From the sequence record MW250786: 64,000 bases of DNA; one strand, written 5' to 3'. The first letter of the stretch is position 1. Each line of letters starts with the position of its first letter. The position numbers and the translations under genes are program-made. This document shows positions 2,183 through 61,300 of this stretch, one piece after another. Below the pieces are notes generated by a model. The model had not been told where the DNA came from. It did no database searches and saw nothing but the letters and a program-made list of their open reading frames with translations. This DNA is from Escherichia phage UPEC06.

Positions 2183-2503
2183 TTATGATTTAAACCCTGA
2201 CGTTAAGTGTTCGCCAAGTGCCCCACTTACCCACAATCTGCAGATGTTGTGCTCTTTGCGTAGCTCTTTCCCGTAAACTACATCACCGTGATTGAACTCG
2301 GCGAAGGTGTAGTAATCCACATCCAGATACCAGATTCGGATAGTCATACCTTTCTCCCAAGCACGGTTCATCAGAGTCATCTGGTAAGTGTGTACATCAT
2401 CCAGACCTTCCTTAAAAATCAGGTAGTTAGAGTAACCGAACGACCCGTGGACGTTAAATCGCAGCGGTGCACAAGTAGGGTGAAAGTTTACAATTTTAGT
2501 CAT
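2183..2503 (-). CDS. hypothetical protein
   Basis: 106-aa ORF in the co-directional block. Confidence 0.5.
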   Translation of the reverse strand: MTKIVNFHPTCAPLRFNVHGSFGYSNYLIFKEGLDDVHTYQMTLMNRAWEKGMTIRIWYLDVDYYTFAEFNHGDVVYGKELRKEHNICRLWVSGALGEHLTSGFKS

Positions 2504-2697
2504 TATTTACTCCTTGGTAAGTCACAATCTAAAAGGTCAATCAAACCTACAGCGTCGAGGTGTCCGGTGATGATATGTTCCTCTTCCTTAAGGCACTTCC
2601 TGCAAACACGTATTGCACGGGTCTTCGGGACTGATCGCTCGCTGTACTGACTCCAATAGGTGAGTACCCAGTCCTTCTTTATGTCAGTGTGATTCAT
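2503..2697 (-). CDS. hypothetical protein
   Basis: 64-aa ORF in the co-directional block. Confidence 0.4.
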   Translation of the reverse strand: MNHTDIKKDWVLTYWSQYSERSVPKTRAIRVCRKCLKEEEHIITGHLDAVGLIDLLDCDLPRSK

Positions 2698-2779
2698 CGT
2701 CCTTTCTCCATAATGTCCACCATAATCATGGAGAACGCCAGTATCAGTAGTGGTAGCGCGATCACTACCCCTGCGGTCA

Positions 2780-2926
2780 TCATAATTGCTCCAGAGCCGA
2801 CAGTACGGCGACGAATGCGAGTAACACTAAGATAATGCCCCAGGTCAAGTAATAATACCAATTAGGCCATAAAAGGTAGTCACAATTCTCCCAAAGGGCG
2901 TTCGGGTTGTCTTTATTTCCAGTCAT
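2780..2926 (-). CDS. small membrane protein (single predicted TM helix)
   Basis: Internal ATG at 2926; hydrophobic segment ILVLLAFVAVLSAL. Confidence 0.3.
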   Translation of the reverse strand: MTGNKDNPNALWENCDYLLWPNWYYYLTWGIILVLLAFVAVLSALEQL

Positions 2927-3197
2927 AGAAGTCCACTGGCTTAGGATCACCGAGGTAATCTGTGCAATAAGTACGGAATGAGGTCTTTGCATCTTCCAGA
3001 GTAAACCCTGCTGGCATAGCGAGGCTTGCCTCATCCCAAAAGATGTACTCTACGTGACCATCACCGTAGATCACTTCTTCGATGGTTGCCAGATTAGTAG
3101 CCTTCATCTCAAATTCTCCTCGATTATACTCCGCATGGAACTTAGATGGACAGAAAAATTGATTATCTAACATACCCGCACGACGTTTCTTTTCCAT
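2913..3197 (-). CDS. hypothetical protein
   Basis: 94-aa ORF in the co-directional block. Confidence 0.5.
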   Translation of the reverse strand: MEKKRRAGMLDNQFFCPSKFHAEYNRGEFEMKATNLATIEEVIYGDGHVEYIFWDEASLAMPAGFTLEDAKTSFRTYCTDYLGDPKPVDFYDWK

Positions 3198-3206
3198 TAT
3201 AGCCCC

Positions 3207-3674
3207 TTACTTTTTACTAATGATTAATTTTTGAATGTTTTCAACGGCTTGGTCGAAAGGAATTTCATATTCTTCGATCAATGCCAGAAGTTTTGCTTTT
3301 GCTTCTTGATTGCGCTCTTCTTGCACTTCTTTAAGAAGCTCGCCATACTTATCTTTCAGCATTTGCTCCGAGATATCATAGGCTTCTGCCAGAATAGCAT
3401 CGATTTTGTCGTCGAGTTCTAAACATTCCGGCGTTGCAGTCTTTCCACTTGCCCAGCAAGCACCCATATAGCCATCAATACCGACGATGAAATCATTCCA
3501 GTTAGTGTAGTAACTTACCCCCTTAGAGATATCATAATCTTGAGCCAAGGCTTCTTTGAACATCTCATCTGCAAGCTTCTGGATCAGTTCTTTACGATCA
3601 GGGGTGCAGAAAGCAAAGAAATAGCTGGATGTATGTTCAGGAAATTCACGACGATAGACTGTTAAGCTGTACAT
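3207..3674 (-). CDS. hypothetical protein
   Basis: 155-aa ORF in the co-directional block. Confidence 0.55.
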   Translation of the reverse strand: MYSLTVYRREFPEHTSSYFFAFCTPDRKELIQKLADEMFKEALAQDYDISKGVSYYTNWNDFIVGIDGYMGACWASGKTATPECLELDDKIDAILAEAYDISEQMLKDKYGELLKEVQEERNQEAKAKLLALIEEYEIPFDQAVENIQKLIISKK

Positions 3675-3874: not shown

Positions 3875-4043
3875 GTTAGTCTCCTGTTTAGTTGATGAAC
3901 TTAATGTACAGGACAAAAGGGGAGAATGCAAGAACTTTTTAAAGCCTCTTAGAAGGCTTCTCACGAGGTTATTTAAGTAGGGTATACATTCGGGTAGGTT
4001 AGTCAGTTTAGGTCGTTACAGTGCACCCTGTGAAGCGGTAGGC

Positions 4044-4070
4044 AATAAAAAACCGCCCGAAGGCGGTTTG
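4044..4070 (-). terminator. Intrinsic terminator (aaccgcc-cgaa-ggcggtt hairpin plus U-run on the minus transcript)
   Basis: Perfect 7-bp stem with tetraloop and flanking A-run on the plus strand, directly downstream of the gene ending at 4085. Confidence 0.7.
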
Positions 4071-4084
4071 TATTTATCGAATTG

Positions 4085-5227
4085 TTATTCCGGCAATTCC
4101 AGAACAGAGAAAGTCAGAACCTGTGTCGTTCCGTAGCCAGGCAACAACTGTGTTGCCTGTGCACCCTGACCAACACCGTACAGAACCCCTCTGTCCAAGT
4201 AGTAGTTTATAGAATATTCAGACTTTATTGAAGAATACTCCCCACCGTAAGGTACAACAGGATCTAGGGCCGTAAACACCGCATAAGTAGGTTGGAAAGT
4301 AGTCCCTACACCTTGCAAGTTCCCTGTTCCTTGTCCTGTAAAATATATTCTGCCGTTAGGGTGTTCAACACGGGCAGAGTAATGGCTGATATATATCTTA
4401 GGTCTTGAAGGCATATTGGAGAGTACCAGTGTTGGTGAGAGAATTGACACGTTCGCGGTACTATTGGTCCCTAAACTTTTGTTAGTGTCCCTCCCCTGAG
4501 CATAGATATGATATGCCCCACTTGCCTCCACAATCCTGAAAAATCCATAGGTTGTTGCAACTATATCAACCACTGTTCCACTTACGTTACTCTGCCTCAT
4601 CCACGTTGTAGAGTTAGTCGTCGTTCCATTCTGACCGTAAGCAGACTCTCCTGCTACATAAACTTCCCCTGTTTTAGTCAGAAGGTAGGACGTATCATAA
4701 GTTGCCCAATCAAGATCTATTTTTTCAACATTCTTAAAATCCGTCCTCAATGTCAGAGTTCTCACAACAGCAGTAGTCCCAACACCTAATCCACCCCTGT
4801 TATTAGTCCCGCACATTGCATACTGCCCATCTTCGAATACAACGGCAACGTTACGATAACTCATGACCACTTGTTTAATAGAGAGTCCAGCAGGGATAGG
4901 CATATCCACTGTAACATCCGTCAGGGTATTTAGTGTTGTACCAAAGCCAGTGTTAAAATACTGGTTAAACCCCATAAACAACCACCTATCTGCGGTTGTC
5001 CTTGCAAGAACAGAAGCCGATGCAGTCCACACATCTGCAATATTTGTTGCCAAGTACCTCCAAGTGTTCACAGTGGAACTCGTACCACTGAAATATTGGC
5101 TACCACGACCATAAAGATTACCAGACTTCATAAGAACAACGATACCCGACTGTCCGGCAGCGAATTTCTTAACTTTACCCTCTACCTCGGGTAGTTCACC
5201 AATGCCTAAGTTCATCATTTCTAACAT
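4085..5227 (-). CDS. RCC1-like repeat (predicted beta-propeller) protein, paralog A
   Basis: Starts MLEMMNLG; recurring G-x-h-Y-x-x-G-x-x-x-G-x-G repeats; AAGGA RBS before the ATG at 5227. Confidence 0.65.
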   Translation of the reverse strand: MLEMMNLGIGELPEVEGKVKKFAAGQSGIVVLMKSGNLYGRGSQYFSGTSSTVNTWRYLATNIADVWTASASVLARTTADRWLFMGFNQYFNTGFGTTLNTLTDVTVDMPIPAGLSIKQVVMSYRNVAVVFEDGQYAMCGTNNRGGLGVGTTAVVRTLTLRTDFKNVEKIDLDWATYDTSYLLTKTGEVYVAGESAYGQNGTTTNSTTWMRQSNVSGTVVDIVATTYGFFRIVEASGAYHIYAQGRDTNKSLGTNSTANVSILSPTLVLSNMPSRPKIYISHYSARVEHPNGRIYFTGQGTGNLQGVGTTFQPTYAVFTALDPVVPYGGEYSSIKSEYSINYYLDRGVLYGVGQGAQATQLLPGYGTTQVLTFSVLELPE

Positions 5228-5236
5228 AATTTTTCC

Positions 5237-6370
5237 TTATTCAAGTCCAGTAAGGTCCAGTGGTACATAGGTTGTCTGGTCTGTTGTGTATCCAGGTAAT
5301 TTACCTGTAGAAGCGCCACCAGATCCATACAAAATTCCATCTTCTGCCAGAACGTAAGTGTTTGTATAATTACCTCTTTGAAATATTTGACCCCATAACG
5401 GACTTGCTGTAGTGGTTATTCTAGTAATACCGTAGTACGTCTGAGTTCCCAATCCCCAGCCTGTCCCCTCAGTCCTCCCCGTAATACCGATATTGTTATT
5501 TATTCTCCTCACAAGACCTTGGGCGAGAGGGTAAAACCCGTAAGCGGGTGAATAAACACTGCTTGTGACTACAGATATGTCAGTTACAGTTGCAACAGTA
5601 GATGCTGCACCTAATGACCCAGATGCGTTGCTACCTAAGCCAAGTATCAATTCATCCCTGTCTGTGCGTGAGCCTGAAATATACACGCACTCATATCCAG
5701 TCTTTAATGCAAGTGGTGCTGAGTTTATTGGGTTTGGTATTCTAACAAAAGAGGTCCTTTGGCCTGTCCCGTTGGAAGAAGAAAACTTAGAGTAAGCCCC
5801 GTTTCCACATCCGTATACATCACCCCCACTTATAATCCAGGTAGTAACTGAAGTATCCAATATTGCAACATCTTTAATACCCAACGAAGTATTGGGTGGT
5901 TCAACATAAGTTAAATTCGGGACTGAAGTATTGGAACCTAAGCCTAAATGGGGGCCTGATCCCGCAACTGCCAGAGTATTATCTGTATAAAGGAAAGCGA
6001 TCGCATTAGCACCCATTTCTATTTTTCTTATCGGCTTATTGATTGCCATTACCTTAGCCGTTACGTCAACGGGCGTATTCTCTACTCTAGGTACGAAGAA
6101 GTTATACCCTGTAATAAACCACGATCCCCCTTTTGTTTTGAACAAGAGCGAAGCTTGCCCAGCCCAGAAGTCATCTACACCAGATGAAACCAACGTCCAT
6201 TCTCTCGTAGTAGCACCTATGCCAGATAAGTTTGCATTTGTAGGTGATATCGAGTACAGATTCCCAGCTTCACTAAGCAAGTGAATACTTTCACTTGCTG
6301 TGATATCGAACTTTTTCAACTTAAATGGGACCTTACCTGCCGCGCCGGATAAATTTAACATCTCTAACAT
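5237..6370 (-). CDS. RCC1-like repeat (predicted beta-propeller) protein, paralog B
   Basis: Internal ATG at 6370 gives MLEMLNLSG; GGAGAA RBS; same repeat architecture as its neighbours. Confidence 0.65.
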   Translation of the reverse strand: MLEMLNLSGAAGKVPFKLKKFDITASESIHLLSEAGNLYSISPTNANLSGIGATTREWTLVSSGVDDFWAGQASLLFKTKGGSWFITGYNFFVPRVENTPVDVTAKVMAINKPIRKIEMGANAIAFLYTDNTLAVAGSGPHLGLGSNTSVPNLTYVEPPNTSLGIKDVAILDTSVTTWIISGGDVYGCGNGAYSKFSSSNGTGQRTSFVRIPNPINSAPLALKTGYECVYISGSRTDRDELILGLGSNASGSLGAASTVATVTDISVVTSSVYSPAYGFYPLAQGLVRRINNNIGITGRTEGTGWGLGTQTYYGITRITTTASPLWGQIFQRGNYTNTYVLAEDGILYGSGGASTGKLPGYTTDQTTYVPLDLTGLE

Positions 6371-6383
6371 TTTATTCTCCTTA

Positions 6384-7583
6384 TTAGTACCAAGGCATAC
6401 TAGCCATGAGGCGCATAGGTGTAACACTGGTCCCTCCATCAGGGAGTGTCCATCCACTTGCTGTTCTACCACCTGCGGCAAACAATTGATAATCTTCAGT
6501 TAAGATAAATGATCGTACATAATCTTTAGCCACCCCAATAACCTTTTTATCTCCGAAGGTTGCAGGTTTGTACATATCCACATAGTTATATACCGATGTA
6601 TAACTTACACCATCACCCACTTGACCTGATCCGTTTTCACCACCGTTTTTGATAGTGTTTCTCCCGAAACAAATGATCGGAGCACCCGTTGCATCACCTG
6701 TTTGGATACCTGATGGATATAATAAATCACCCTCCGGTAAGTTTCCACTCAAGGCATCGTTTTTTATAGGTCGCAGGACCGTTCCTGCGTTGTTAAATGA
6801 ACCCGTTCCCGCAGAACCTTGAGTATTCAAACCGCTCCAATACACGTCTCCATTTTGCATTATTCTCCAAGTACATACCGTAGCAACAATTATGTTTTTA
6901 ACACCCGAAGTAACCAATGTTGGAGTTTGTAAGTGACTGTTAAGAGCACCTAGACCACTTTCCCCGTAAGCATCGTACCCTGCAAAGAATTCCCTGCCAT
7001 CTTCAGTTAAGAAATGAGTACCGAAAGCCCTTGTAGCCAATTGAGATATAGGCCCCATACTGGTGATCTGGACAAAGTTTGCAATCATATTTCTTGTACC
7101 ATTCCCACACTCACCATTAGAGTTAAGACCACAGCAGAAAACACGACCATCTTTTGTCAGAAGCCTACAAGATCCGCTGCCGAGCGCCAGAGTTTTTATA
7201 TCATCAGGTGTCACACCAATATTGTTAAAATGTACTGTAACTTCAGTAAAGTAAGCAACGTTACCACCACCTGTCCCCAGTGGTGGAAATGCGTTCCTGA
7301 TCCCAGCATAATAGAATTTATCATCGTTTGTTGCAACAAGTGTACTAGCCTGACCTAACCAGAAATATTTACAGTTTGAATAGATAGGTTTAAAGCTCGG
7401 TACTTCTGTTGGAATACCGTCCCCGAATCGGTATACAGGTGCATTACCATACCCGTAAAGATTGCCAGTTGGCCTGTGAAGATACATAACCACAGATTGT
7501 TGCGCCTGAATAAATTCAGGTGAGATCTCACTATCAATTGGAGGCAAAGAGGCTACAGCTCCTAAGTTCAACATCTCTAACAT
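6384..7583 (-). CDS. RCC1-like repeat (predicted beta-propeller) protein, paralog C
   Basis: ATG at 7583 gives MLEMLNLGA; GGAGAA RBS; repeats such as GRVFCCGLNSNGECGNG. Confidence 0.65.
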   Translation of the reverse strand: MLEMLNLGAVASLPPIDSEISPEFIQAQQSVVMYLHRPTGNLYGYGNAPVYRFGDGIPTEVPSFKPIYSNCKYFWLGQASTLVATNDDKFYYAGIRNAFPPLGTGGGNVAYFTEVTVHFNNIGVTPDDIKTLALGSGSCRLLTKDGRVFCCGLNSNGECGNGTRNMIANFVQITSMGPISQLATRAFGTHFLTEDGREFFAGYDAYGESGLGALNSHLQTPTLVTSGVKNIIVATVCTWRIMQNGDVYWSGLNTQGSAGTGSFNNAGTVLRPIKNDALSGNLPEGDLLYPSGIQTGDATGAPIICFGRNTIKNGGENGSGQVGDGVSYTSVYNYVDMYKPATFGDKKVIGVAKDYVRSFILTEDYQLFAAGGRTASGWTLPDGGTSVTPMRLMASMPWY

Positions 7584-7660
7584 ACTTAATTCTCCTGTTG
7601 TTTTGGAATACCACAAAGAACCCCATAAAGAGGTTCCTTGATTTCATTATCTACTTTACT

Positions 7661-7666
7661 ATTATA
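7661..7666 (-). promoter_or_regulatory. Possible -10 element (TATAAT on the minus strand) upstream of the RCC1-like gene cluster
   Basis: Exact TATAAT hexamer on the minus strand in the 168-bp intergenic gap; no good -35 found. Confidence 0.25.
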
Positions 7667-7751
7667 CCTGTTTTTCCTTACAAAGTCCAAAAAGGAGCGA
7701 GACTTACTTTCAGGCGCTGTAGACACATACCCTTGTTTTTCTTCACTATTT

Positions 7752-7958
7752 TCAAATTTCAACGATACCCTCCGTGAAAAACAATTTCATAAAGTCCTCT
7801 TCCCAAAACACCATTGCTCCAGAGTGGGTATCAACAACGAAAGTTCTACGTGGGTCACGATAAGTGTTACCAAAGTGAAACTCAAATCGATCACCTTTCT
7901 TGTGCTGCCCGAAATCCTGTTTTAATTCACAAAATTGAACCTGCTCTGAAGAAATCAT
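7752..7958 (-). CDS. hypothetical protein
   Basis: 68-aa ORF. Confidence 0.45.
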   Translation of the reverse strand: MISSEQVQFCELKQDFGQHKKGDRFEFHFGNTYRDPRRTFVVDTHSGAMVFWEEDFMKLFFTEGIVEI

Positions 7959-7968
7959 GTTTTGCCCC

Positions 7969-8196
7969 TTATTCTCTGTAACCTAGGATCTTTACCAGTT
8001 TGTCGGATTTATCTTTTACCCTGCTGTAATAGTATTCAGTCTGAGATTTACTATCACACTTTGTCATTGTGTACCAAAAGAAAAAACCTATCCGTTTTTG
8101 CAAGGCATAAGTAACCTTTTTGCCTGCATGTGTATGATTATATTCAATTAGTACGATTCTGTATCTATTCACAAATCTATTCATGAACTTAAACAT
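7969..8196 (-). CDS. hypothetical protein
   Basis: 75-aa ORF. Confidence 0.45.
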   Translation of the reverse strand: MFKFMNRFVNRYRIVLIEYNHTHAGKKVTYALQKRIGFFFWYTMTKCDSKSQTEYYYSRVKDKSDKLVKILGYRE

Positions 8197-8203
8197 GACT
8201 GCA

Positions 8204-8311
8204 TCACAGCAAGACTAGGACGATGAATGTCGCAATAACCATCACAGCAATCTCAGTTTTGGTAAAGGTAACTTTGTTGGTTGCAGGTACGTTGTTTTTC
8301 CAAATGCTCAT
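8204..8311 (-). CDS. small membrane protein (35 aa), below the ORF-track length cutoff
   Basis: ATG at 8311 with a GAGGAGA RBS; hydrophobic C-terminus IAVMVIATFIVLVLL. Confidence 0.35.
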   Translation of the reverse strand: MSIWKNNVPATNKVTFTKTEIAVMVIATFIVLVLL

Positions 8312-8522
8312 AAATTTCTCCTCGTTTAGTAAATACCTAAGATGAACTCATCGCCACGAAAAACTCCCAGGCTACTTGATTCATTCCACACACCAAAATT
8401 ACCAGTCAGTTCAGAGTCTTCGTAGCTGTAAAGCATCTCGTCTTCTTGATCTTCATAATGCCCGTTACGAATGATGTTGTCAATTACTTTCGTTAAATTT
8501 TTAATTTTATTCTCCTTAGTTA

Positions 8523-8861
8523 TTATAATTCTTCAGCATTTTCCACAGCATGAGCCAGTTCACTCAAGAAATCTTTCAAGCCAATGGTGTACGATTCAAC
8601 AAGGGCCTCTGCAATTTGGCTCTTAAACTTCGAATCGGCTAACTCTTCCATCCGGCTATGTACGCTGATGTTCGTAATCAGAAACTTAACGATATAGCTC
8701 GCCTTGTAGAGCAAAGGGAAGTAATCTTCTACCATGTTTTCAATACGGAAGTATTTTTCTGCGTTGTATTCCCACATAAAAACAGTCGTCAGTTCTTTGG
8801 CAAGTTCATGGTCTTTTTTAGCCATTGCAATCAGATGTTCTATCTCTGCTTGTTCAACCAT
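8523..8861 (-). CDS. hypothetical protein
   Basis: 112-aa ORF. Confidence 0.5.
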   Translation of the reverse strand: MVEQAEIEHLIAMAKKDHELAKELTTVFMWEYNAEKYFRIENMVEDYFPLLYKASYIVKFLITNISVHSRMEELADSKFKSQIAEALVESYTIGLKDFLSELAHAVENAEEL

Positions 8862-9073
8862 TAAATGACCTCCTCTTTAAGAATCTCACGATGACCTGCG
8901 CCGTACCATCCTTTCATCGTATTAACTACACCAACAGCCTCGCCGTATGTTTCAAATTTCGATTCTTCATGTGGGCCAATACGGACAGTTACCCAAAACA
9001 AGTTAAATACTTTACGATGAACTTCATAATGCGTTGATTCACCTTTCCGAACTTTAACGATCCGAACTTTCAT
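8861..9073 (-). CDS. hypothetical protein
   Basis: ATG at 9073 with a GGAGGG RBS; start adjusted. Confidence 0.5.
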   Translation of the reverse strand: MKVRIVKVRKGESTHYEVHRKVFNLFWVTVRIGPHEESKFETYGEAVGVVNTMKGWYGAGHREILKEEVI

Positions 9074-9269
9074 TATACCACCCTCCAAAAGTCATAAATG
9101 CTTGATCAACCATATCTTTCCACTCAGGGTAGAGAGCACAAATCATGATGTAGACCTCTTCATCAATGTCTTCACACTCCTCCATTTCCAAATACTCTAC
9201 CACAGGTATGGGCAGAAGGCAATTTATTTCTTTACCCCTGAATTTCAGACCCTTAACTAATTTTAGCAT
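9054..9269 (-). CDS. hypothetical protein
   Basis: ATG at 9269 with an AAGGA RBS. Confidence 0.5.
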   Translation of the reverse strand: MLKLVKGLKFRGKEINCLLPIPVVEYLEMEECEDIDEEVYIMICALYPEWKDMVDQAFMTFGGWYNESSDR

Positions 9270-9270
9270 A

Positions 9271-9510
9271 TCAATCCTTAATCACGTAGAATCCTGATTC
9301 GTTCATCAGGACAAAGGACTTGCCGAAGAAATCCTTACGATTATCCAAAACAAGGTAGAATCTTCGCTCAGACGAGAGGTGATGTGGGTCAGCCATATAG
9401 CTTACCCTCGCCGTCATGCCCTTATTCTTTCCTCTTGTGATCCTTACCCTTGTACCATTCTCATATTTAATATCCACCGAACCTCCATCGCAACTCTTTA
9501 TGAATCTCAT
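9271..9510 (-). CDS. hypothetical protein
   Basis: 79-aa ORF. Confidence 0.45.
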   Translation of the reverse strand: MRFIKSCDGGSVDIKYENGTRVRITRGKNKGMTARVSYMADPHHLSSERRFYLVLDNRKDFFGKSFVLMNESGFYVIKD

Positions 9511-9970
9511 CCAACCCTGGTTTCAGTTTTGGAAGATCTCTTATAAACTCAGGATAGAGGACATTAACGAAGTCAATCTCATCATCTGTGGGTTTTTGAA
9601 TATCTTCGAAATACTCGTCAAGATTGAATATCTGCCAATCCTTACACCCTGCCTTTCGGACACCCATGAAGATTTCATTGTTACAGGTGGCCATCCAGGA
9701 GATCCTAGATCCTTTACCATTCGCATTCGGCAATGTTGAAACACAGAAGCGTGGTACTTCCCGAACCTTAAAATCCTTGTCATAGTATCCGCGACCACGT
9801 TGAAATTTAAACTTGGTCTTTCCCACTCTTTGACTAATCTTCATGTCACGGCGAAAGCTGTGGTCAGAGGTATAGATGAGTTGACGAAGATACTGAGTAT
9901 GTCTGATCTTTTTCCAATTCCAATCTCGAATGAGTATTTCATAGACTTCCTTAAATGCTTCATACGCCAT
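9467..9970 (-). CDS. hypothetical protein
   Basis: Internal ATG at 9970 avoids overlap with the upstream gene. Confidence 0.5.
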   Translation of the reverse strand: MAYEAFKEVYEILIRDWNWKKIRHTQYLRQLIYTSDHSFRRDMKISQRVGKTKFKFQRGRGYYDKDFKVREVPRFCVSTLPNANGKGSRISWMATCNNEIFMGVRKAGCKDWQIFNLDEYFEDIQKPTDDEIDFVNVLYPEFIRDLPKLKPGLDEIHKELRWRFGGY

Positions 9971-10199
9971 CGGGGGATTCCTTATCGAGAGCACCAACAA
10001 TCTCAAACTTTGCTACGCCAAGGACAACCACATGACCTAGGGATTGTACGCCTGTCCACGGAGTACCATTCTTCTTAGATCGCTTACCAACCACATCGCA
10101 GAAATCATTCCGAAGTTCTGTTGCATCAAACAATTCACCTTTTGGAAAAACTTCTTTAAAATCAGCAATCACGTTCAGACATTTCAGTTTCATATTCAA
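9960..10199 (-). CDS. hypothetical protein
   Basis: 79-aa ORF. Confidence 0.45.
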   Translation of the reverse strand: MNMKLKCLNVIADFKEVFPKGELFDATELRNDFCDVVGKRSKKNGTPWTGVQSLGHVVVLGVAKFEIVGALDKESPDGV

Positions 10200-10536
10200 A
10201 CACCCCTCTCTCTAATCTTTGTTTGGCAAGTAACTCCCTCTGTGCTCTAAGCGGCATCCTGAAAAATATTACAACATTCTCCAAATCCGCTGCCCGTTTT
10301 TTAAGCCCTTTGGTAAATTTACCTTCCCGCTTAATTGCATCGTAGATACCTCTGTACTCCTCTTCGACAGAGTTATCTTCAAATATCCGGTTAGCGATCA
10401 TACTGTCGATCTCCATCCCGAGAGCTTCAAAGCCGTACCAGTCTACATGTTCTTCTGTAACGGGACCTCTCTCCTTGTACACTTGTCCCGTAACTTCGTT
10501 AATTACAATCGTCGTCATTTTCGTACCTTCTTGCAT
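10162..10536 (-). CDS. hypothetical protein (paralog of the adjacent gene; shared FFRMP motif)
   Basis: C-terminal FFRMPLRAQ and an MEIDSM..FEDNSVEEE segment resemble the neighbour. Confidence 0.5.
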   Translation of the reverse strand: MQEGTKMTTIVINEVTGQVYKERGPVTEEHVDWYGFEALGMEIDSMIANRIFEDNSVEEEYRGIYDAIKREGKFTKGLKKRAADLENVVIFFRMPLRAQRELLAKQRLERGVFEYETEMSERDC

Positions 10537-10813
10537 TATACGGCATCCTGAAGAAGTTTAGAAGGTTGTAGATAGCAGCAACCCTCTCTTTTATCTTTTC
10601 GTCTAAGAAGATATCAGGTCCCTTGCTACAAAGTTCAAAATCTATATCTTCCCACTCATCAACCACAGATCCGTCTTCAAAAACTCCCTTTTCATACATC
10701 ATCCTGATCTCCATCTCCATCCCCTTGAATATTGAAAAAGTAACATCCTCAGGATGAAGGTACTGCACGTTATCTATAAACAATCCCCTACGTGGGTATA
10801 TGACCATGTGCAA
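10499..10813 (-). CDS. hypothetical protein (paralog of the adjacent gene; shared FFRMP motif)
   Basis: C-terminal FFRMPYNAR and an MEIRMM..FEDGSVVDE segment. Confidence 0.5.
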   Translation of the reverse strand: MHMVIYPRRGLFIDNVQYLHPEDVTFSIFKGMEMEIRMMYEKGVFEDGSVVDEWEDIDFELCSKGPDIFLDEKIKERVAAIYNLLNFFRMPYNARRYENDDDCN

Positions 10814-10931
10814 AATAATCCTCCTATGTTCAATATAAGCCCCACAGAAGCGATTTTGACGAGGTTTTCTTAAGAGAATGATAAATCACCTTACCTCGTC
10901 GTAGACCTCGTTAGAATCGTTCTGAGGGCGT

Positions 10932-11186
10932 TTAAATCATGCCTAGCAAATTCATCTCTTTTAACAACCCTTCTTTAGTAGAGTTGAACAGAACTGGCTT
11001 ACCTTCTTCTGGCTCATTGAAGAAGATTTCATGAGTCTCATTATCTATCTTCTCCATCTCTTTTACTACTTCCCCTGACAAAAAGATATCACTACCTTTT
11101 AAACCAGGAAACATCAAAAGAATTGCGGTTTTCGCATCTGTTGCCCAACCCTGACCACCATCTAGACTGAATATCTTAATCATCAT
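10932..11186 (-). CDS. hypothetical protein
   Basis: Internal ATG at 11186 with a GGAGG RBS. Confidence 0.45.
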   Translation of the reverse strand: MMIKIFSLDGGQGWATDAKTAILLMFPGLKGSDIFLSGEVVKEMEKIDNETHEIFFNEPEEGKPVLFNSTKEGLLKEMNLLGMI

Positions 11187-11484
11187 TTTCCTCCAAATTA
11201 GCCAGTGCAGTTCTGACTTCAAGAAGAGTTGCCGACCTTGACTCGTTTCTTTCTGAGAAATCACGAATCATCATCTTGTACTTCATTTCTTCTTCAGCAC
11301 GGAGAATCTTCTGTTCGATCAACTTGTAAACTTTGCCCGCTCTTTCTGGAAACAACGCTGCAAAGAGATTCCAGTCTTCCAATCGACCTTCGTAAGACTC
11401 TCCAGAGGTAAAGTACCGATCTCTTTCGATGCTGTCAACAAAATAATAACCGAATTCACCATAACGCCAAGTTTCATTTTTCAT
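11176..11484 (-). CDS. hypothetical protein (paralog of 11646-11885)
   Basis: Shared motif ERDRYFTSGESYEGRLEDW versus ERDREEYFTSQTTEGRAEDW. Confidence 0.5.
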   Translation of the reverse strand: MKNETWRYGEFGYYFVDSIERDRYFTSGESYEGRLEDWNLFAALFPERAGKVYKLIEQKILRAEEEMKYKMMIRDFSERNESRSATLLEVRTALANLEENDD

Positions 11485-11642
11485 TTGATGTACCGAGCAG
11501 CAGCCGTACCGATAAGGAAGCCAGCAGGAACTGCGACAATAATAGCTTCAATCATTTTGAGATCTGCTGCAACACATGCTGCACCAACAACAACAGAACC
11601 CGCCCAGATAGCAATTACACGTTTCAAAAATTTGGTATTCAT
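11481..11642 (-). CDS. small membrane protein (53 aa), below the ORF-track length cutoff
   Basis: ATG at 11642 with a GGAGA RBS; hydrophobic segments; ATGA overlap with the downstream start. Confidence 0.4.
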   Translation of the reverse strand: MNTKFLKRVIAIWAGSVVVGAACVAADLKMIEAIIVAVPAGFLIGTAAARYIK

Positions 11643-11645
11643 TCG

Positions 11646-11885
11646 TTAGTCTCCTGATTTTGTTAAGTTTTCTTTTATTTTTACGTATTCGATTAAAGAT
11701 TTTGCGAGATCACCATCGATTTTCTCACAAACCATGAGTATCTCTCTTACCTTTTCGGGATGAACAGATTCATAGAATTTCCAATCCTCTGCTCTCCCTT
11801 CTGTGGTTTGGGAAGTGAAGTATTCTTCTCTATCCCGCTCCGGTAAGAGATAATATACAAGACTCAGCTTCCTCTCGTCAACCAT
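11646..11885 (-). CDS. hypothetical protein (paralog of 11176-11484)
   Basis: Shared YFTS..EGR.EDW motif. Confidence 0.5.
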   Translation of the reverse strand: MVDERKLSLVYYLLPERDREEYFTSQTTEGRAEDWKFYESVHPEKVREILMVCEKIDGDLAKSLIEYVKIKENLTKSGD

Positions 11886-11894
11886 TTTATCACC

Positions 11895-12266
11895 TTATTC
11901 GTAAAAAAGTTTATCAGCTTGTTCATTCAACCAACCTTGTCGAAAAGCCCCCTTGAGGACCTCTGCCCACTTTGGATTTGCAGCCTCTAAGAGAAGTATC
12001 TCTTCTTTCTCTATGTTCATAGGATCAGCAAAGAAATCTAAGATTTGCTCGTTGAAGACACCCTCTATCAAAATCCCTTTATATTTCAACGTCAAACGTT
12101 TTACCATAAAACCTTGAGATATTGCTCCCTCCCTATCAATTGTCGTAGTTGGGGGATTTGGAATAGGAAAACCCGTCATAGGTAATGGCGATGCACCTGT
12201 CTTCACAAAGGTATTCCCTCCGGTATTATTGAAGAAACCTTTCACATTTTTATCGTACAATGACAT
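11895..12266 (-). CDS. hypothetical protein
   Basis: 123-aa ORF. Confidence 0.5.
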   Translation of the reverse strand: MSLYDKNVKGFFNNTGGNTFVKTGASPLPMTGFPIPNPPTTTIDREGAISQGFMVKRLTLKYKGILIEGVFNEQILDFFADPMNIEKEEILLLEAANPKWAEVLKGAFRQGWLNEQADKLFYE

Positions 12267-20280: not shown

Positions 20281-20332
20281 TATGTTCTCCTAGTTGATGA
20301 CTATCATTATACACATCCCCATATCCAAGTCA

Positions 20333-20362
20333 ACAAAAAAGGCCACCCGAAGGTGACCTTTA
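20333..20362 (-). terminator. Intrinsic terminator (aggtcacc-ttcg-ggtggcct plus U-run); same sequence as the plus-strand terminator at 61192-61221 in reverse orientation
   Basis: Hairpin plus A-run on the plus strand; reverse complement of 61193-61221. Confidence 0.65.
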
Positions 20363-29316: not shown

Positions 29317-29373
29317 CTTTTCCTCCTGTCTCGTTTATGTGGTTTATTATACGGATTACGTTATCAAAGTCAA

Positions 29374-42818: not shown

Positions 42819-42885
42819 TTTATCTCCTGTTGTTGGTTGATATGGGTATTATACAGAACTGGAGGCAGGTGTCAAGAGATATATA

Positions 42886-44417: not shown

Positions 44418-45194
44418 TTACATACCCTCCAGGTTTGCTTCAAAATAAGTGATTGGCTTCATGATCTTGCCATTCTTATCTTTAAATACTACACGATCCA
44501 TACCATCACCACCTTTTACGATGCTTCCCTTTACACCTTGATAACGGTTACGGTTACGCAGTTCAATCTGTTCAGCTTCCAAACGCAACATGGCATCAAG
44601 ATCAAAATCAGCTTCTGCAAAAAAGTAATACGTCTTGTAGAAACATTCCGTAAATTCTTTCACGGTTGGGATCTTGGAATCATTTGAATCCAAAACCTCA
44701 TTTAAAGCACGACGAGCATTAAAGTTGGAGTTCTGCATGATTGCAACAACCGCCATAACGATCCCGTTTGTATTGTCACTCTCGATAAATTGATCAAGAG
44801 TTCGATAAAGCGAAGTCAGATTATACGTACCCATATTGTCAGCAGGACAGATGTTTTCAGAACCACCTTTTAGGAAGTTGTAATATGATCCAACTACAAA
44901 CAAGTCGCAAAGTGCATCTATGATTTCCTTACGATTCTTTTTAGTTAAACCAAGATCATAAAGTTCATTGTACTCTTCCATAACAAGAGTTTTTTGGAAT
45001 TTTGAAATATCTTCAGAGAAGTCATGAAAACCACGAGCAACAAAATTCCAATTTTTTACTCGCTCTGCTGCTTCCCGAAAGAAGCTATTGCCCTTAACAT
45101 CAATCATCTCGGAAATAAAGGTTTTCTGATCAGCACTCAATTCATTGTATTTCAATTTAATCTCCTTTCGTTTAACTTGGGGGCCATTATACAT
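44418..45194 (-). CDS. hypothetical protein
   Basis: 258-aa ORF. Confidence 0.55.
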   Translation of the reverse strand: MYNGPQVKRKEIKLKYNELSADQKTFISEMIDVKGNSFFREAAERVKNWNFVARGFHDFSEDISKFQKTLVMEEYNELYDLGLTKKNRKEIIDALCDLFVVGSYYNFLKGGSENICPADNMGTYNLTSLYRTLDQFIESDNTNGIVMAVVAIMQNSNFNARRALNEVLDSNDSKIPTVKEFTECFYKTYYFFAEADFDLDAMLRLEAEQIELRNRNRYQGVKGSIVKGGDGMDRVVFKDKNGKIMKPITYFEANLEGM

Positions 45195-45209
45195 GACCCC
45201 TTATCATTG

Positions 45210-45671
45210 TCAACAGTCTTTATAAGTTTCTAGTGCAACTTTACGGGCTTCATCCTTTTCAATCTCAAACTTAGATCGTTTGTCCTTTCTTGAAGCCTTG
45301 TTACGTCGCTTAACGATTCGACGACAGGTGTGGTAAAGTCGTGTACCTTCATAATCATTCATCCAGAACAGATCGCCATTCACGAAGAGAGTATCGGAGA
45401 TAATACCACAAGCCTTTTCAATGTAAGTAACCTTACCTGTGACCGTATCGACAATTGTATAGTCAACATACCAAAGACTATCGTTATCCTCGCACGGGTC
45501 TTGTTGGCCTTCAGGAACAAAAACTCCAGAATGTATCTCAAATCGAGGAGATCCTTTACGGATCAGCTTCAAGATTTTACCTGCTGGCTTACGAGTTAGC
45601 AGTACCGGAACACCTAAGACTACTGAAAGGTAAAGTGTAATCCCTACAAACCCAATAATTAAAGCTTCCAC
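45210..45671 (-). CDS. hypothetical protein with an N-terminal TM anchor
   Basis: IIGFVGITLYLSVVLGVPVLL near the N-terminus. Confidence 0.5.
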   Translation of the reverse strand: MEALIIGFVGITLYLSVVLGVPVLLTRKPAGKILKLIRKGSPRFEIHSGVFVPEGQQDPCEDNDSLWYVDYTIVDTVTGKVTYIEKACGIISDTLFVNGDLFWMNDYEGTRLYHTCRRIVKRRNKASRKDKRSKFEIEKDEARKVALETYKDC

Positions 45672-54936: not shown

Positions 54937-56424
54937 ATGTCTGCTACATTCGCACCAGCGAGTCGAAAGCAACAAATGGTTCTCGAATCTGACGCACAAA
55001 TAATGGTTATCGGTGGTGCAGCGGGATCAGGTAAGTCCTACCTTCTCCAGTTGATGCCTTTGTTGATTGTAAACGACCCTAGAACAGCGTGTATCATGTT
55101 CCGTCGTACCGTCCCTCAGATTCGTGGACAAGGTGGTTTGTTCGACAAAGCTAAGGATATTTACAACCAACTACCTCCGGTAGTTAAGCCTAAGTTTAAA
55201 GAAAATGAAATGACTGCAACATTTCCTAACGGAGCTACCGTTAAATGGCAGTCTATGCAACACGTAAGCGATAAATTCGATATTCAGGGATTGGAGTTTA
55301 CCTTTATCGGGGTTGACGAAGGAACACAGTTCGAATGGGAACAGTTGGAATATATGATGTCCCGTTTGCGTTCAAACTCAAAATATCCTTCCCGTATGGT
55401 AATAAGTTGTAACCCCGATCCTGATCATTATCTTCGTAAGATGGTTGACTGGTATCTCGATAAGGATGGATATCCTAATCCTGAAAAAGACGGTGTTATT
55501 CGTTATTTCGTCCGTGTGGATGACCAATACATGTGGGGAGACTCAGTAGAGGAGTTGAAGAAACGTTATGGTAAGAAATGTAAGCCCGTATCGTTCACAT
55601 TCATATCTTCCACTATTTATGACAACCCGCCAATGCTTATCAACAACCCCGAATACCTTGCTCAGTTGGAAGGTCTTAACGAGGTTGACCGTGCACGACT
55701 TCTTCATGGTAACTGGGATGCTCGTCCGCAGGGTGCAAACTATTTTAAACGTTCTTTCCTCAAAAATGTAGATCATCTCCCGCTTAATTGCGACAAGGTT
55801 AGATCTTACGATAAAGCAGGTACAGAGCGTTCCACAGGTAACAAAACACCTGACTTCACGGCAGGTATAGGTGTAGCGCGAGATCAGGATGGGTTCTACT
55901 ACCTGTTCGGTGATTATTGTGATGAATTCGTTGATACTGGCGATTGGTCCACTGGACAAGCCGGACGCTTCTGCAAAAAAGCAGGTGAGCGTGACAAGAT
56001 TATTCTTAAACAGGCAATACATGACGGAGATGACGTTAGGATCATCTTCCCTGTTGACCCTGGTCAAGCAGGTCTATCCGAATTTACTACATCTTCTCGT
56101 GAGTTATTGAATCAAGGGTTCATGGTTGAGAAAGACCCAACACCAGGTAACAAGAAGAAGCTTGTACGCTTCTCTCCGTTCGCTAACTTAGCACAGAACG
56201 GATTTGTACGGATTGTTGAGAAATCTTTTCCTATGGACACATTAGAAGCTTTATTGAAGGAACTTGAATCTTTCGACGGTGAGAGGTCAACTGGATCACG
56301 TAAGGACGACTGGGTGGATGCCATCTCTTCGGGTATTAACTATCTGGAGAAAACAGAAATTGTCCGTGCTGTTCCAATACCACGACCTCACGCCCCTACG
56401 ATGTATTCCAGGTATAGACGATAA
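54937..56424 (+). CDS. terminase large subunit
   Basis: Walker A GGAAGSGKS near the N-terminus; 495 aa; AAGGAG RBS; immediately upstream of the portal gene. Confidence 0.85.
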   Translation: MSATFAPASRKQQMVLESDAQIMVIGGAAGSGKSYLLQLMPLLIVNDPRTACIMFRRTVPQIRGQGGLFDKAKDIYNQLPPVVKPKFKENEMTATFPNGATVKWQSMQHVSDKFDIQGLEFTFIGVDEGTQFEWEQLEYMMSRLRSNSKYPSRMVISCNPDPDHYLRKMVDWYLDKDGYPNPEKDGVIRYFVRVDDQYMWGDSVEELKKRYGKKCKPVSFTFISSTIYDNPPMLINNPEYLAQLEGLNEVDRARLLHGNWDARPQGANYFKRSFLKNVDHLPLNCDKVRSYDKAGTERSTGNKTPDFTAGIGVARDQDGFYYLFGDYCDEFVDTGDWSTGQAGRFCKKAGERDKIILKQAIHDGDDVRIIFPVDPGQAGLSEFTTSSRELLNQGFMVEKDPTPGNKKKLVRFSPFANLAQNGFVRIVEKSFPMDTLEALLKELESFDGERSTGSRKDDWVDAISSGINYLEKTEIVRAVPIPRPHAPTMYSRYRR

Positions 56425-56439
56425 CTGAGGGGAATTATT

Positions 56440-57972
56440 TTGAAGAAGAAGAATAAAGGTCGCAACACACAGGTTCGTAAAGCGACGAGCGAAGAATTAA
56501 ACGTTGCTCGTTTACGAATGAGTGAGCAAGGTACTTTTGCTTTAGCTAAGGTTCAGGTAGAAACTGAACGCATGAAAGCTGAAGAAATTAAATGGCCTCA
56601 ATTGATCGGTACAGTTGAAGCTATGAAACAAGATGCTACGGTAGCGACTGGTCTTGATATGCTTTACACTTTCGTAGAGAAAGCATTCAAGGACTTCAAA
56701 GTAATCCCTGGCAAATCTAAAGAGTCTCAAGACGCAGCAGAGTTCATTACCTTCTGCCTTCGTAACATGGAAGGTCAAACCCTGCGTCAATTTGCCCGTG
56801 ACGCTGCCACATTTAACGAATACGGCATCTCTGTAGTTGAGAAGGTATATACTCAGATCCAGACTGGTGAATATGCAGGACGATTTAAGATTAAAAACCT
56901 TGCATTCCGTCCACAGGCTTCTCTGAGTCGTAAAAACCCTCTCGTGTACAGCGATGATGGTTCTCGTGTTATCGGTGTTAAACAGTCACTTGATTCTTTC
57001 AAGAACTACACAGATAGTCCACTTGGTGCTTCTATGAGTGGCCTGACTGGTTCTCGTAGAGGGAATGATGTTGTTATTCCAGCAAACAAGCTGATGATCA
57101 TGACGACTGGCGGTTCTTCTTCTCAAGCGCTCGGCGTTTCTCCGCTGGTTGCTTGTTACCGACCTTGGCGTGAAAAAGTTCTTATCGAGAACCTTGAAGT
57201 TGTTGGTGCTACGAAAGACATGGGTGGTGTTATCGAACTGAAGATTCCTTCTGCTATTCTTAACAAAGCAGCTATCGACCCTTCCAGTTACGAAGCTGAG
57301 ATGGTTCAAGGTCTAATGATGGATGCCGCAAACGCCCACTCAGGCGAGCAATCTTTCTTTATGTTACCGTCTGACGTTAAAGATAACTCACCCCTGTATT
57401 CAATGTCTCTGAAGGGCATTGACGGTATGGGTAAACAGTACAGTACTCGTGACCTGATCAGTGATCGTAAAAAATCAATCCTTGATCGTCTGGGCGCGGG
57501 ATTCCTGAACGTAGGTAATGATGCCTCTGGTTCATACAACCTGTCGGAATCAAAACAAACTATCCATACTCAATTTGTACAACGTGTTAATGAAATTATC
57601 GCTGAAGCACTGAATGAAAACCTGCTCCCTCAGCTTCTGGCTCTGAACGGTATTCGTCTGGCAGAAAAAGAAATGCCATTCGTTAAATTTGGTCAGATCG
57701 TTGATACAGACATGGAAGGTTTCTCTAAAGCGGTTCAGCGTATGGGTGCTGTCGGCTACTTGCCTAAGACACCGGAAGTTATTAATCGCATTCTTGATGT
57801 TCTTGGAATCGATTATCAAGTTGGTGAAGATATTTCGCAAGAAGAACTTATGCTTCTCCTTGGAGATAATACCAGTCGTTCTGGCGATGGCTTTGCACAG
57901 GGGACTTCTGGAAACGGGACTGCAAAGATTAGCGGAACAAGAGATAATTCAGTTTCTAATTTAGAAAATTGA
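56440..57972 (+). CDS. portal protein
   Basis: 510 aa; TTG start with a GAGGGG RBS; position between terminase and head genes. Confidence 0.7.
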   Translation: MKKKNKGRNTQVRKATSEELNVARLRMSEQGTFALAKVQVETERMKAEEIKWPQLIGTVEAMKQDATVATGLDMLYTFVEKAFKDFKVIPGKSKESQDAAEFITFCLRNMEGQTLRQFARDAATFNEYGISVVEKVYTQIQTGEYAGRFKIKNLAFRPQASLSRKNPLVYSDDGSRVIGVKQSLDSFKNYTDSPLGASMSGLTGSRRGNDVVIPANKLMIMTTGGSSSQALGVSPLVACYRPWREKVLIENLEVVGATKDMGGVIELKIPSAILNKAAIDPSSYEAEMVQGLMMDAANAHSGEQSFFMLPSDVKDNSPLYSMSLKGIDGMGKQYSTRDLISDRKKSILDRLGAGFLNVGNDASGSYNLSESKQTIHTQFVQRVNEIIAEALNENLLPQLLALNGIRLAEKEMPFVKFGQIVDTDMEGFSKAVQRMGAVGYLPKTPEVINRILDVLGIDYQVGEDISQEELMLLLGDNTSRSGDGFAQGTSGNGTAKISGTRDNSVSNLEN

Positions 57973-58038
57973 TCTTTGATTTAAATCAGACTCTTGCAAA
58001 ACGAATCGTTCAGTGTTAAAATAAATATCACGGGAGCA

Positions 58039-58611
58039 ATGATGGAAAACATTACTATCTCCGACCTTCCTTCACAAACCTATCTGTCCCGAATCCAAAA
58101 GGGACGGGCTGTGAAAAAGGCCAATGAGCTACTTAAACAGGGCTTCAATAAAGAGGCTTCTATTTCTGGAGCCATTGGCTCCGTTCTTGTCCAAAAAGCT
58201 GCACAGAAAGAAGAGATGATTTCTTACGAGATCATTTACGAACCTGATACGCCGGATGCTCATGGACAATGGATGAGCAAAGAGACACTAGTTAAAGCAC
58301 AGCAAGATTTCAAGAAAGCTCAAGAAATCGGTGCGGTAACTGAGAACTTGTACCACTTGGTTGATACCGAAGCATTCAAGATCGTAGATCATTGGATTCA
58401 GCCAGAAATTGATGTAACTGTCACACAAACAGGAGAAATCATAAAAGCAGGGTCATGGGTAGCAAAGGTTCAATATTCACCTGAAGCATGGGAGTTAAAG
58501 AAAGCTGGCATCGTCGGTGGATTATCTCTTCAGTGCGGTGGTATGTTGAATGAGGAAACAAATGAGCTATCCGATCTTGATTTCAGTATCGAATTGGAAG
58601 AGGAAGAATAA
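58039..58611 (+). CDS. head morphogenesis protein, putative XkdF-like prohead protease
   Basis: YEPDTPDAHGQWMSKETLVKAQQDF resembles the XkdF-family EPD..D..G motif; sits between portal and scaffold. Confidence 0.4.
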   Translation: MMENITISDLPSQTYLSRIQKGRAVKKANELLKQGFNKEASISGAIGSVLVQKAAQKEEMISYEIIYEPDTPDAHGQWMSKETLVKAQQDFKKAQEIGAVTENLYHLVDTEAFKIVDHWIQPEIDVTVTQTGEIIKAGSWVAKVQYSPEAWELKKAGIVGGLSLQCGGMLNEETNELSDLDFSIELEEEE

Positions 58612-59705: not shown

Positions 59706-59725
59706 TTATTGAGGAAACGAATAGA

Positions 59726-60157: not shown

Positions 60158-60180
60158 CTTTTTCGAAGGAGAATATTTAA

Positions 60181-61176: not shown

Positions 61177-61191
61177 TCTTAATAACTGATT

Positions 61192-61221
61192 AAAGGTCAC
61201 CTTCGGGTGGCCTTTTTTATT
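61192..61221 (+). terminator. Intrinsic terminator after the major capsid gene
   Basis: Hairpin aaaggtcacc-ttcg-ggtggccttt followed by ttttttatt. Confidence 0.8.
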
Positions 61222-61300
61222 ATGCCTGTACAATTTAGGCAAAATAGTGTACCATTATAAGATAGGCTATTAATCTAATCAATGACGAAGGAGTAATTTA

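Follow-up and report, generated by a model that had tools for sequence, protein, structure and literature searches.

This analysis concerns three adjacent genes, here called A, B and C, at positions 4,085 to 7,583 of a 64,000-nucleotide stretch from Escherichia phage UPEC06 (MW250786; the whole stretch is referred to as the window), and the short N-terminal peptide that begins each of their products. All three lie on the minus strand, and gene limits and protein numbering are counted from the ATG of the MLEM start. As defined by open reading frame (ORF) and translation, gene C (6384..7583) encodes a protein of 399 amino acids (42.6 kDa, isoelectric point (pI) 5.4), gene B (5237..6370) one of 377 amino acids (39.7 kDa, pI 6.2) and gene A (4085..5227) one of 380 amino acids (41.2 kDa, pI 6.3), with intergenic gaps of 13 nt between C and B and of 9 nt between B and A. 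With net charges of -1, -1 and -5 and pI values of 5.4-6.3 the three proteins are near neutral. Each start codon is preceded at a spacing of 6-8 nt by a Shine-Dalgarno sequence on the same strand, namely AGGAG for C (7592..7596, 8 nt ahead of the ATG), AGGAG for B (6377..6381, 6 nt ahead) and AAGGA for A (5234..5238), the last of which overlaps the stop codon of B; the longer TTG-started ORFs that a mechanical ORF list gives for B and C are upstream extensions. The shared peptide reads MLEMLNLG in C (7560..7583), MLEMLNLS in B (6347..6370) and MLEMMNLG in A (5204..5227, minus strand throughout), where it is followed by a variable linker of residues 9-18. The DNA of the window matches five phages only, LTH01, A73, W70, A5-4 and A7_1, a group assigned to the genus Septuagintavirus of the Vequintavirinae (PMC11370258).

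After removal of the first 25 residues, A and B still align with 27% identity over 364 amino acids (E = 6e-16) and A and C with 26% identity over 272 amino acids (E = 3e-14), while the direct match between B and C is weak (E = 0.009). Judged by these alignments, the three proteins are true but old paralogs. All of them match PHROG 4219 ('regulator of chromosome condensation'; E values of 1.5e-43, 6.1e-28 and 1.1e-50 for A, B and C, respectively) over residues from about 4 to 398, in B over residues 15-370, against profile positions 425-804 of 867, and all have a Pfam match to an RCC1-like domain. At the level of the repeat models, A reaches 34.8 bits with RCC1_2 (cut-off 22) and C 25.8 bits with RCC1 (cut-off 21.7) and 23.3 bits with RCC1_2 (cut-off 22), along with a WD40_RLD match at E = 7e-23; B stays below the cut-off of the RCC1 repeat models (13 bits) and is matched by WD40_RLD (E = 1.4e-9) and by its full-length alignment with A. 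Given a family alignment of 26 sequences, AlphaFold2 produced a model of A with a predicted local distance difference test score (pLDDT) of 89.8, a predicted template modelling score (pTM) of 0.88 and 28 strands, that is, seven blades of four. Foldseek comparison of this model with the PDB returns UVR8 (E = 7e-22, template modelling (TM) score 0.76-0.79) as well as RPGR, HERC2 and RCC1 (TM 0.62-0.70). The model thus shows A, as a confident prediction, to be a seven-bladed RCC1-like propeller, and we infer by homology that B and C adopt the same fold. A preliminary description of this DNA, made from its letters alone, had seen here three adjacent minus-strand paralogs of about 380-400 residues, each with its own ribosome-binding site (RBS) and with recurring G-x-h-Y-x-x-G units as in seven-bladed RCC1-type propellers. 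The genes and their start signals are as described, the units are present in the translations of A, B and C, the relationship extends well past the first eight residues, and the modelled fold of A, with a TM of about 0.76 to UVR8, is the one predicted.

The first eight residues stand out from the remainder of the proteins. Their common form is MLEM(M/L)NL, and A, B and C agree in six of the eight columns that open their alignment, as compared to at most four in any other eight-column window; in a permutation test p is 4e-5 for this opening window and 0.006 for a window at any place. Among 21 family members this tag is the lowest-entropy eight-column block (0.59 bits), whereas the block right after it has the second-highest entropy (2.24 bits). 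The form M-(L/I/F)-E-(M/L)-(M/L) is kept in homologs from Septuaginta-, Certre- and Seunaviruses and from three uncultured viral contigs, with body identities of 27-49%. In the model of A the pLDDT of residues 1-13 does not reach 50, and the strands start only with residue 19. The codons of the tag differ synonymously between the paralogs (GAA/GAG, TTA/TTG, AAC/AAT and GGC/GGA), which shows that selection acts on the peptide and that recent gene conversion is not the source of the conservation.

But could the peptide be conserved for reasons that have nothing to do with addressing, that is, as a constraint on translation initiation or on the mRNA, through concerted evolution of tandem paralogs, or as an element of propeller folding or closure? 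Tandem genes could exchange their 5' ends, B and C do share the RBS-plus-start sequence AGGAGAAT..ATGTTAGAGATGTT, and propellers are often closed by an N-terminal strand. However, such a closing ('velcro') strand was rejected as the cause of the conservation, since in the model the tag is disordered and lies outside the fold. The synonymous differences inside the tag and its conservation in single-copy homologs of other genera likewise speak against this explanation, as do two observations presented below, namely that an unrelated glycine-rich family bears the tag and that in phage CBB its presence correlates with detection in the virion. We therefore consider it decidedly unlikely that the tag has no addressing role.

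The history of the tag can be separated from that of the body that it precedes. When its tag is trimmed off, C matches gp002-type proteins of Asteriusvirus over the full length with 213-216 bits and 36-37% identity, far above its 64 bits with A and likewise above its match with B. These relatives carry MLPFGRMIKYGN where C carries the Septuagintavirus tag, and the segment that is replaced between them comprises the first 8-12 residues. Since the body of C is Asteriusvirus-like and yet Septuagintavirus-tagged, the tag follows the phage lineage and not the ancestry of the propeller.

Moreover, in relatives the same tags head proteins of unrelated fold. Inside the RCC1 array of phAPEC6 (MK817115) an unannotated ORF at 7325-8059, the counterpart of 121Q gp243, starts with MLPFGRMVKYGN and encodes 244 amino acids with a glycine-rich, non-RCC1 body that matches PHROG 4474 (E = 9e-69). 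Members of this glycine-rich family carry the tag of their own lineage, as seen in CBB_144 (MLPFSPLIVYGN), PVP-SE1 gp19 (MFEMML) and an ORF of EspYZU08 (MLEILTIG), and among 120 database relatives 26 have a Vequintavirinae-type start and six a start of the jumbo-phage type. In CBB (KU574722, 26369-37465, plus 4001-4765 of a separate locus) ten proteins of at least four unrelated kinds start with MLPFxR..Y(G/A)N; here the jumbo-type tag heads Kelch propellers (CBB_550, CBB_552 and CBB_554), concanavalin A (ConA)-like lectin domains that match Laminin_G_3 (CBB_548 and CBB_551) and unassigned proteins. Across other Vequintavirinae loci totalling about 110 kb, the only ORFs of at least 100 amino acids that carry the motif do so at Shine-Dalgarno-preceded starts of RCC1-like or glycine-rich genes. 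A model of the glycine-rich family (pLDDT 81.7) is best matched by the fibre protein gp24 of the cyanophage Pam3, by chains of the Bxb1 tail tip and by the glycine-rich domain of ALK; sequence searches of the PDB with this family returned nothing significant, and only the fold search was informative.

As to the database records of these relatives, gp004 of phAPEC6 in GenBank (7716-8018) looks like a wrong-frame call over the 244-amino-acid glycine-rich ORF, the RCC1-like ORFs at 3-1145, 2434-3543 and 6063-7253 of the same phage are unannotated, and a 12.8-kb stretch of it holds 11 ORFs that start with MLPF(A/G)RM..YGN. The record of EspYZU08 (MW882934) is very sparsely annotated; it contains an unannotated glycine-rich ORF of 245 amino acids (4453-5190) about 2 kb downstream of an RCC1-like gene (1440-2603).

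Are the propellers then part of the phage particle? The preliminary description had proposed virion proteomics as a check, and for the orthologs in W70 the result was already in print. In purified virions of W70, electrospray ionization tandem mass spectrometry detected W70_237, W70_238 and W70_239 with 233, 196 and 141 spectra, respectively (PMC11370258 Table 2), at a cut-off of 25 spectra and with all three proteins above several baseplate proteins (PMC11370258). They have the same order, sizes and PHROG 4219 assignment as C, B and A, with which they pair by mass (42.6 kDa for C and 43 kDa for W70_237, 39.7 and 40 kDa for B and W70_238, 41.2 and 41 kDa for A and W70_239), and are 93% identical in the case of C and 65% in that of A; their spectra per kDa fall between baseplate and portal levels. 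Similarly, eight of the 11 RCC1-like paralogs of phAPEC6 are in its virion (PMC7247149 Table 1), and the RCC1-like gp001 of GAP32 is a structural protein (PMC5259590). In CBB, eight of the ten tagged proteins were detected in the virion by mass spectrometry (MS) as opposed to 4 of the 74 other coding sequences of the same stretches (Fisher p = 5e-7, in regions that were not picked blind). By the detection of their orthologs, for which this status is known, A, B and C are probably minor virion components themselves. The genes and the virion association have thus been published before; what appears to be new is the principle of tag and payload across folds and across two phage lineages. No description of the tag was found in the literature searched, and term searches of the W70 paper returned no mention of the shared N-terminal peptide (PMC11370258).

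Abundant soluble proteins that stick to particles might of course have been detected instead, as sucrose-gradient preparations can carry soluble proteins over and thymidylate synthase, a RecA-like protein and the single-stranded DNA-binding protein also appear in the virion list of phAPEC6. Then again, detection was achieved independently in three or four phages by different laboratories, the W70 proteins passed the 25-spectrum cut-off with counts above those of several baseplate proteins, and in CBB tagged proteins are strongly enriched among the MS hits. Co-purification of contaminants is therefore very unlikely to explain the data.

A role has already been suggested for these virion proteins. 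The authors of the W70 paper annotated them as 'regulator of chromosome condensation 1' and suspected a role in DNA encapsidation (PMC11370258), and the same DNA role was suggested for the paralogs of phAPEC6 (PMC7247149). Read in this way, the proteins would be helpers of DNA condensation or packaging inside the capsid, which would agree with their virion association, with the authors' own suggestion and with an inner body occurring in phAPEC6. However, this role is deduced from the family name only, and the near-neutral proteins are without the basic excess expected of DNA binders. Being low-copy, without a match in rV5-like phages and decayed in PVP-SE1, they are not core packaging components either, and the same tags are found on lectin-like, Kelch and adhesin-like proteins. 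Moreover, Ran and the chromatin context are to our knowledge absent from bacteria, and therefore the RCC1 name does not transfer the function. Taken together, a part in DNA condensation is hardly probable at all, and the name-based annotation 'DNA condensation protein', which is spreading in phage records, is poorly supported and is corrected here. The CB7 paper, which the W70 authors cite for 'similar proteins', does not mention RCC1. Another candidate, the hair-like fibres or whiskers, was rejected, as CBB has tail whiskers without an RCC1 homolog, while for GAP32 an RCC1 virion protein is known and hairs are not reported (PMC5259590). A placement of RCC1-like virion proteins by cryo-electron microscopy was not found in the literature searched.

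We propose that each of the three proteins consists of an 8-residue peptide M-L-E-M-M/L-N-L-G/S, a short variable linker and a propeller. The peptide would be an address tag that docks its bearer to a lineage-specific component of the virion, and the propeller would be an interchangeable payload that binds a ligand. Most likely this payload would serve as an accessory host-surface adhesin outside the particle, on the tail or the fibres or possibly on the head, with A, B and C providing three alternative specificities and A being the fast-evolving slot. We would put the probability of this explanation as a whole, that is, of a modular N-terminal virion-docking tag with interchangeable binding modules which are probably external accessory adhesins, at roughly one half. 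That the tag mediates incorporation into the virion we hold with moderate confidence, and with lower confidence that the propellers are located externally and function as adhesins. The preliminary description had already pictured a shared N-terminal anchor on diverged bodies, an idea that gains from the tag being disordered, least variable, lineage-specific and present on unrelated virion proteins of relatives.

Why would the payloads be adhesins on the outside of the particle? We favour this assignment for several reasons. The folds that share the tags are typical extracellular binding modules, and the glycine-rich family is best matched by Pam3 gp24, the Bxb1 tail tip and the ALK domain. In Pam3 gp24 an N-terminal attachment element is followed by two domains, one TNF-like and one Gly-rich, and the authors of its description compare the protein with the fibre-tip adhesin gp38 of S16 (PMC9942802). 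In addition, RCC1-like propellers occur within annotated tail-fibre proteins, namely in PollyC, in Littlefix and in gp40 of PVP-SE1, which is paired with rV5 gp28 (Table S6). Finally, A evolves like a specificity determinant. Among Septuagintaviruses the flanking proteins are 94-100% identical, B 97-98% and C 93-99%, whereas A is only 65-76% identical, with differences spread along its whole length, and A is duplicated in LTH01, which thereby has four RCC1-like copies. The allele of A in UPEC06 is a divergent variant relative to W70_239; B is 98% identical to its A73 ortholog, and the A73 identities for C and A equal those of W70. A fused, fibre-like architecture, as opposed to the tagged single-domain form, is seen in the 45-kb viral contig IMGVR_UViG_3300017919_000002, where RCC1-like domains lie in proteins of 739 and 1467 amino acids (5290-11912) that bear neither tag.

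The distribution of the genes is patchy. A search with an A-type alignment found four related loci, and A-type homologs occupy the same map position in other Vequintavirinae, at the end of a long block before a convergent junction. The Certrevirus F1M1E has two copies, three uncultured viral contigs and the Seunavirus EspYZU15 have one each, and gp179 of PVP-SE1 is a truncated RCC1-like remnant of 100 amino acids; no RCC1-like match was obtained in rV5 and other members of the genus Vequintavirus. The variation in copy number that the preliminary description had suggested looking for thus ranges from a truncated remnant to four copies in Vequintavirinae and reaches at least 10 copies, within 12.8 kb, in Asteriusvirus. 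This patchy copy number together with the divergence of A marks the genes as dispensable accessory genes with one hypervariable slot, which is A. Two side observations concern individual loci. In PVP-SE1 (5001-7545) gp179 is followed by about 2.2 kb without an annotated gene or a long forward-frame ORF, which looks like decay of the locus. In A7_1 (OP795442, 93367-94561) the A-type gene is matched in two pieces without an annotated coding sequence and may be a disrupted allele; the W70 paper lists W70_239 as not shared with A7-1 (PMC11370258), which agrees with the split match.

Turning to the surroundings of the cluster, A, B and C would form one transcription unit. A candidate sigma-70-type promoter, TGGACT-N17-TATAAT (7661..7689, minus strand), lies about 75 nt upstream of C and agrees with the consensus at 10 of 12 positions, with one mismatch to the class TTGAC-N17-20-TATAAT. 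In a promoter scan near the cluster promoter-like sites were not above chance, and the candidate of C is a consensus match only. The minus strand of the window contains four exact sites of the TTGAC-N17-20-TATAAT class as compared to 0.25 expected (20306-20333, 29346-29373, 42848-42875 and 45186-45213), each with a G before TATAAT; they look like a phage promoter class similar to the sigma-70-like early promoter reported for Certrevirus. The unit is closed by an intrinsic terminator on the minus strand (4044..4069), AAACCGCC-TTCG-GGCGGTTT followed by TTTTATT, which has a stem of 8 bp with five GC pairs (4050-4069) ahead of its T-run and lies 15 nt past the stop codon of A. A TTG-started ORF of 58 amino acids annotated in LTH01 (10756-10932, corresponding to about 7584-7760 of the window), directly upstream of C, would span the candidate promoter and the 5' untranslated region and is probably spurious. 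On the other side, at 2183-2697 (minus strand), the window has two small ORFs of 106 and 64 amino acids without a counterpart in LTH01; the adjoining ORFs share 91-99% identity with that phage, which points to a small indel between close relatives.

The cluster is the final unit of a leftward block of about 49 kb that holds nucleotide-metabolism genes, with small genes among its neighbours. The head module lies far away on the plus strand (54937-61894) and encodes the large terminase, the portal, an XkdF-like S78_2 protease, an acidic scaffold-like protein of 364 amino acids (phrog_2970), a decoration candidate of 143 amino acids (14.8 kDa), which has the position and size of the head decoration protein of W70, and the major capsid protein (MCP). 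The MCP is of the lambda gpE type, and the head system of UPEC06 is lambda-like rather than T4-like. The preliminary description, which had noted a strong terminator after the cluster and its distance from the head genes, was accurate on both counts, as the head genes map to 55-61 kb of the same window. Its assignment of the cluster to an 'early block' is only roughly right; what stands is that the unit is the last of the nucleotide-metabolism block and has a candidate sigma-70-type promoter.

This position also brings in another explanation, in which the tag would be a T4-like capsid-targeting sequence (CTS) and the propellers would be packed into the head, ejected into the cell and act there on host proteins, for instance defence enzymes, by binding or inhibiting them. 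The CTS proteins of T4 are built alike, with diverse bodies behind a short conserved N-terminus, and T4 internal-protein genes similarly lie outside the structural module behind early or middle promoters, as the candidate promoter of C would suggest for A, B and C. A patchy, dispensable distribution, with no match in rV5-like Vequintavirus and a truncated gene in PVP-SE1, low abundance in the virion and the inner body of phAPEC6 would all suit ejected effectors. RCC1-like propellers can moreover be tight protein inhibitors, as is BLIP-II (InterPro IPR009091). However, the remaining families that bear the tags have lectin-like, Kelch and fibre- or adhesin-like folds typical of external binding modules, the head proteins in the window are without the tag, and a rigid 40-kDa propeller could presumably pass the tail tube only in unfolded form. 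T4-like processing was judged improbable, given that the head protease is XkdF-like (S78_2) and not gp21-like, that the MCP is lambda-E-like and that a consistent or conserved cleavage motif is missing behind the tag. The Vequintavirinae tags seen keep E3, where a cut would remove only three residues, and the E at position 9 of the jumbo-phage tags is found in about half of them and hence not conserved. On balance we regard ejected effectors as unlikely, though by no means negligible.

Several points weigh against external adhesins docked by a tag. The genes are surrounded by nucleotide-metabolism and small genes, follow a sigma-70-like promoter and are not part of the tail module, a location which equally fits internal proteins of the T4 type, and 8 residues are short for a stable anchor as compared to the 29 amino acids of the KP32 docking peptide. 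A test for a ligand face, in which the variability of alternating loop sets was compared in 17 A-type sequences, revealed no difference (1.50 vs 1.60 bits, p = 0.54). When the window and essentially the whole LTH01 genome were scanned for the tag on other proteins, it was found on RCC1 genes only, so that the case across families rests on relatives. Among these, the virion status of PVP-SE1 gp19 rests on an entry in a table that compares structural proteins and whose bold type does not survive in the text form, and the matches of the glycine-rich model to fibre proteins combine high Foldseek probability with low TM values (0.26-0.38). Furthermore, only A was modelled, and the copy number of very roughly six of each protein per virion, as derived from spectral counts, is a crude estimate.

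If the tag is indeed a docking signal, it would account for the recruitment by large myoviruses of numerous small accessory proteins whose genes lie far from the structural ones, and also for the fast-evolving arrays with variable copy number. A sequence rule, M-phi-E-phi-phi or MLPFxR..YGN at the start of a gene, would then predict virion proteins among 'hypothetical' genes, and 8-18 residues would serve as a handle by which foreign proteins could be loaded, for display or for the engineering of host range, on particles of Vequintavirinae or jumbo phages, in parallel to the KP32 peptide. A broader and more tentative proposal, which we consider possible but somewhat doubtful, is that two unrelated groups of enterobacterial myoviruses, the Vequintavirinae (M-phi-E-phi-phi) and the Rak2-like jumbo phages (MLPFxR..YGN), each use a universal tag that plugs binding modules into a common docking site. 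Payload genes would pass from one lineage to the other and there receive the local tag, which seems to have happened to gene C, and virions would display a mixed panel of adhesins that can evolve. Under either tag the modules so far comprise polyglycine adhesins, ConA-like lectins and propellers of the RCC1 and Kelch types. If true, this would amount to a natural plug-and-play system of host range and would also offer engineers a display handle ready for use.

How do the tagged propellers compare with known systems? The eukaryotic RCC1, UVR8, RPGR and HERC2 and the bacterial BLIP-II share the same seven-bladed propeller with its RCC1 repeat signature, but eukaryotic RCC1-like domains are only 13-19% identical to A (RCC1 itself 13-18%), and unlike the eukaryotic proteins those of the phage are bare propellers with an N-terminal tag. 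The Asteriusvirus or Rak2-like jumbo phages (phAPEC6 gp001-010, 549 and 551; 121Q gp234-248; GAP32 gp001) have the same single-domain propellers in tandem arrays, detected by MS in virions. Their paralogs likewise share a conserved N-terminal peptide, which is MLPF(A/G)RM(V/I)KYGN, also given as MLPFxRMxKYGN, and their lineage is unrelated to Septuagintavirus and has a T4-like head according to the virion list of phAPEC6. The likeness to gp38 of S16 and T2 and to Pam3 gp24 concerns the second tag-bearing family (PHROG 4474, distantly Pfam Gly_rich_2) and not the RCC1 propellers. Both gp24 and gp38 are attached through their N-terminal part; Pam3 gp24 attaches by a long helical bundle and disulfides, and it shares with the glycine-rich tagged family a layout of beta-sandwich and Gly-rich domain (TM 0.35-0.38).

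In T4, IPI, IPII, IPIII and Alt carry as their CTS an N-terminal peptide of about 10 amino acids on diverse, dispensable and fast-evolving virion proteins that are encoded away from the head genes (PMC3012670). There the CTS sends its bearers to the core of the prohead and is removed by the gp21 protease (PMC3012670), whereas UPEC06 has an XkdF-like S78_2 protease in place of one of the T4 type, no cleavage motif and payload folds that look extracellular. A second parallel, and the one after which we picture the MLEM tag as working, is offered by the secondary receptor-binding proteins gp38 of KP32 and gp57 of KP34, two Klebsiella podophages in which, as here, a short N-terminal peptide is conserved on diverse bodies (PMC6872550, PMC13352976). 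The KP32 system differs in that its peptide has 29 amino acids, its payloads are trimeric depolymerase tailspikes and its partner is a T4gp10-like branching domain of the receptor-binding protein RBP1; the MLEM tag has 8 amino acids, its payloads are probably monomeric propellers and it lacks sequence similarity to the KP32 peptide. Yet the docking peptide of KP32 RBP2 is both necessary for incorporation into the virion and transferable to foreign payloads (PMC13352976).

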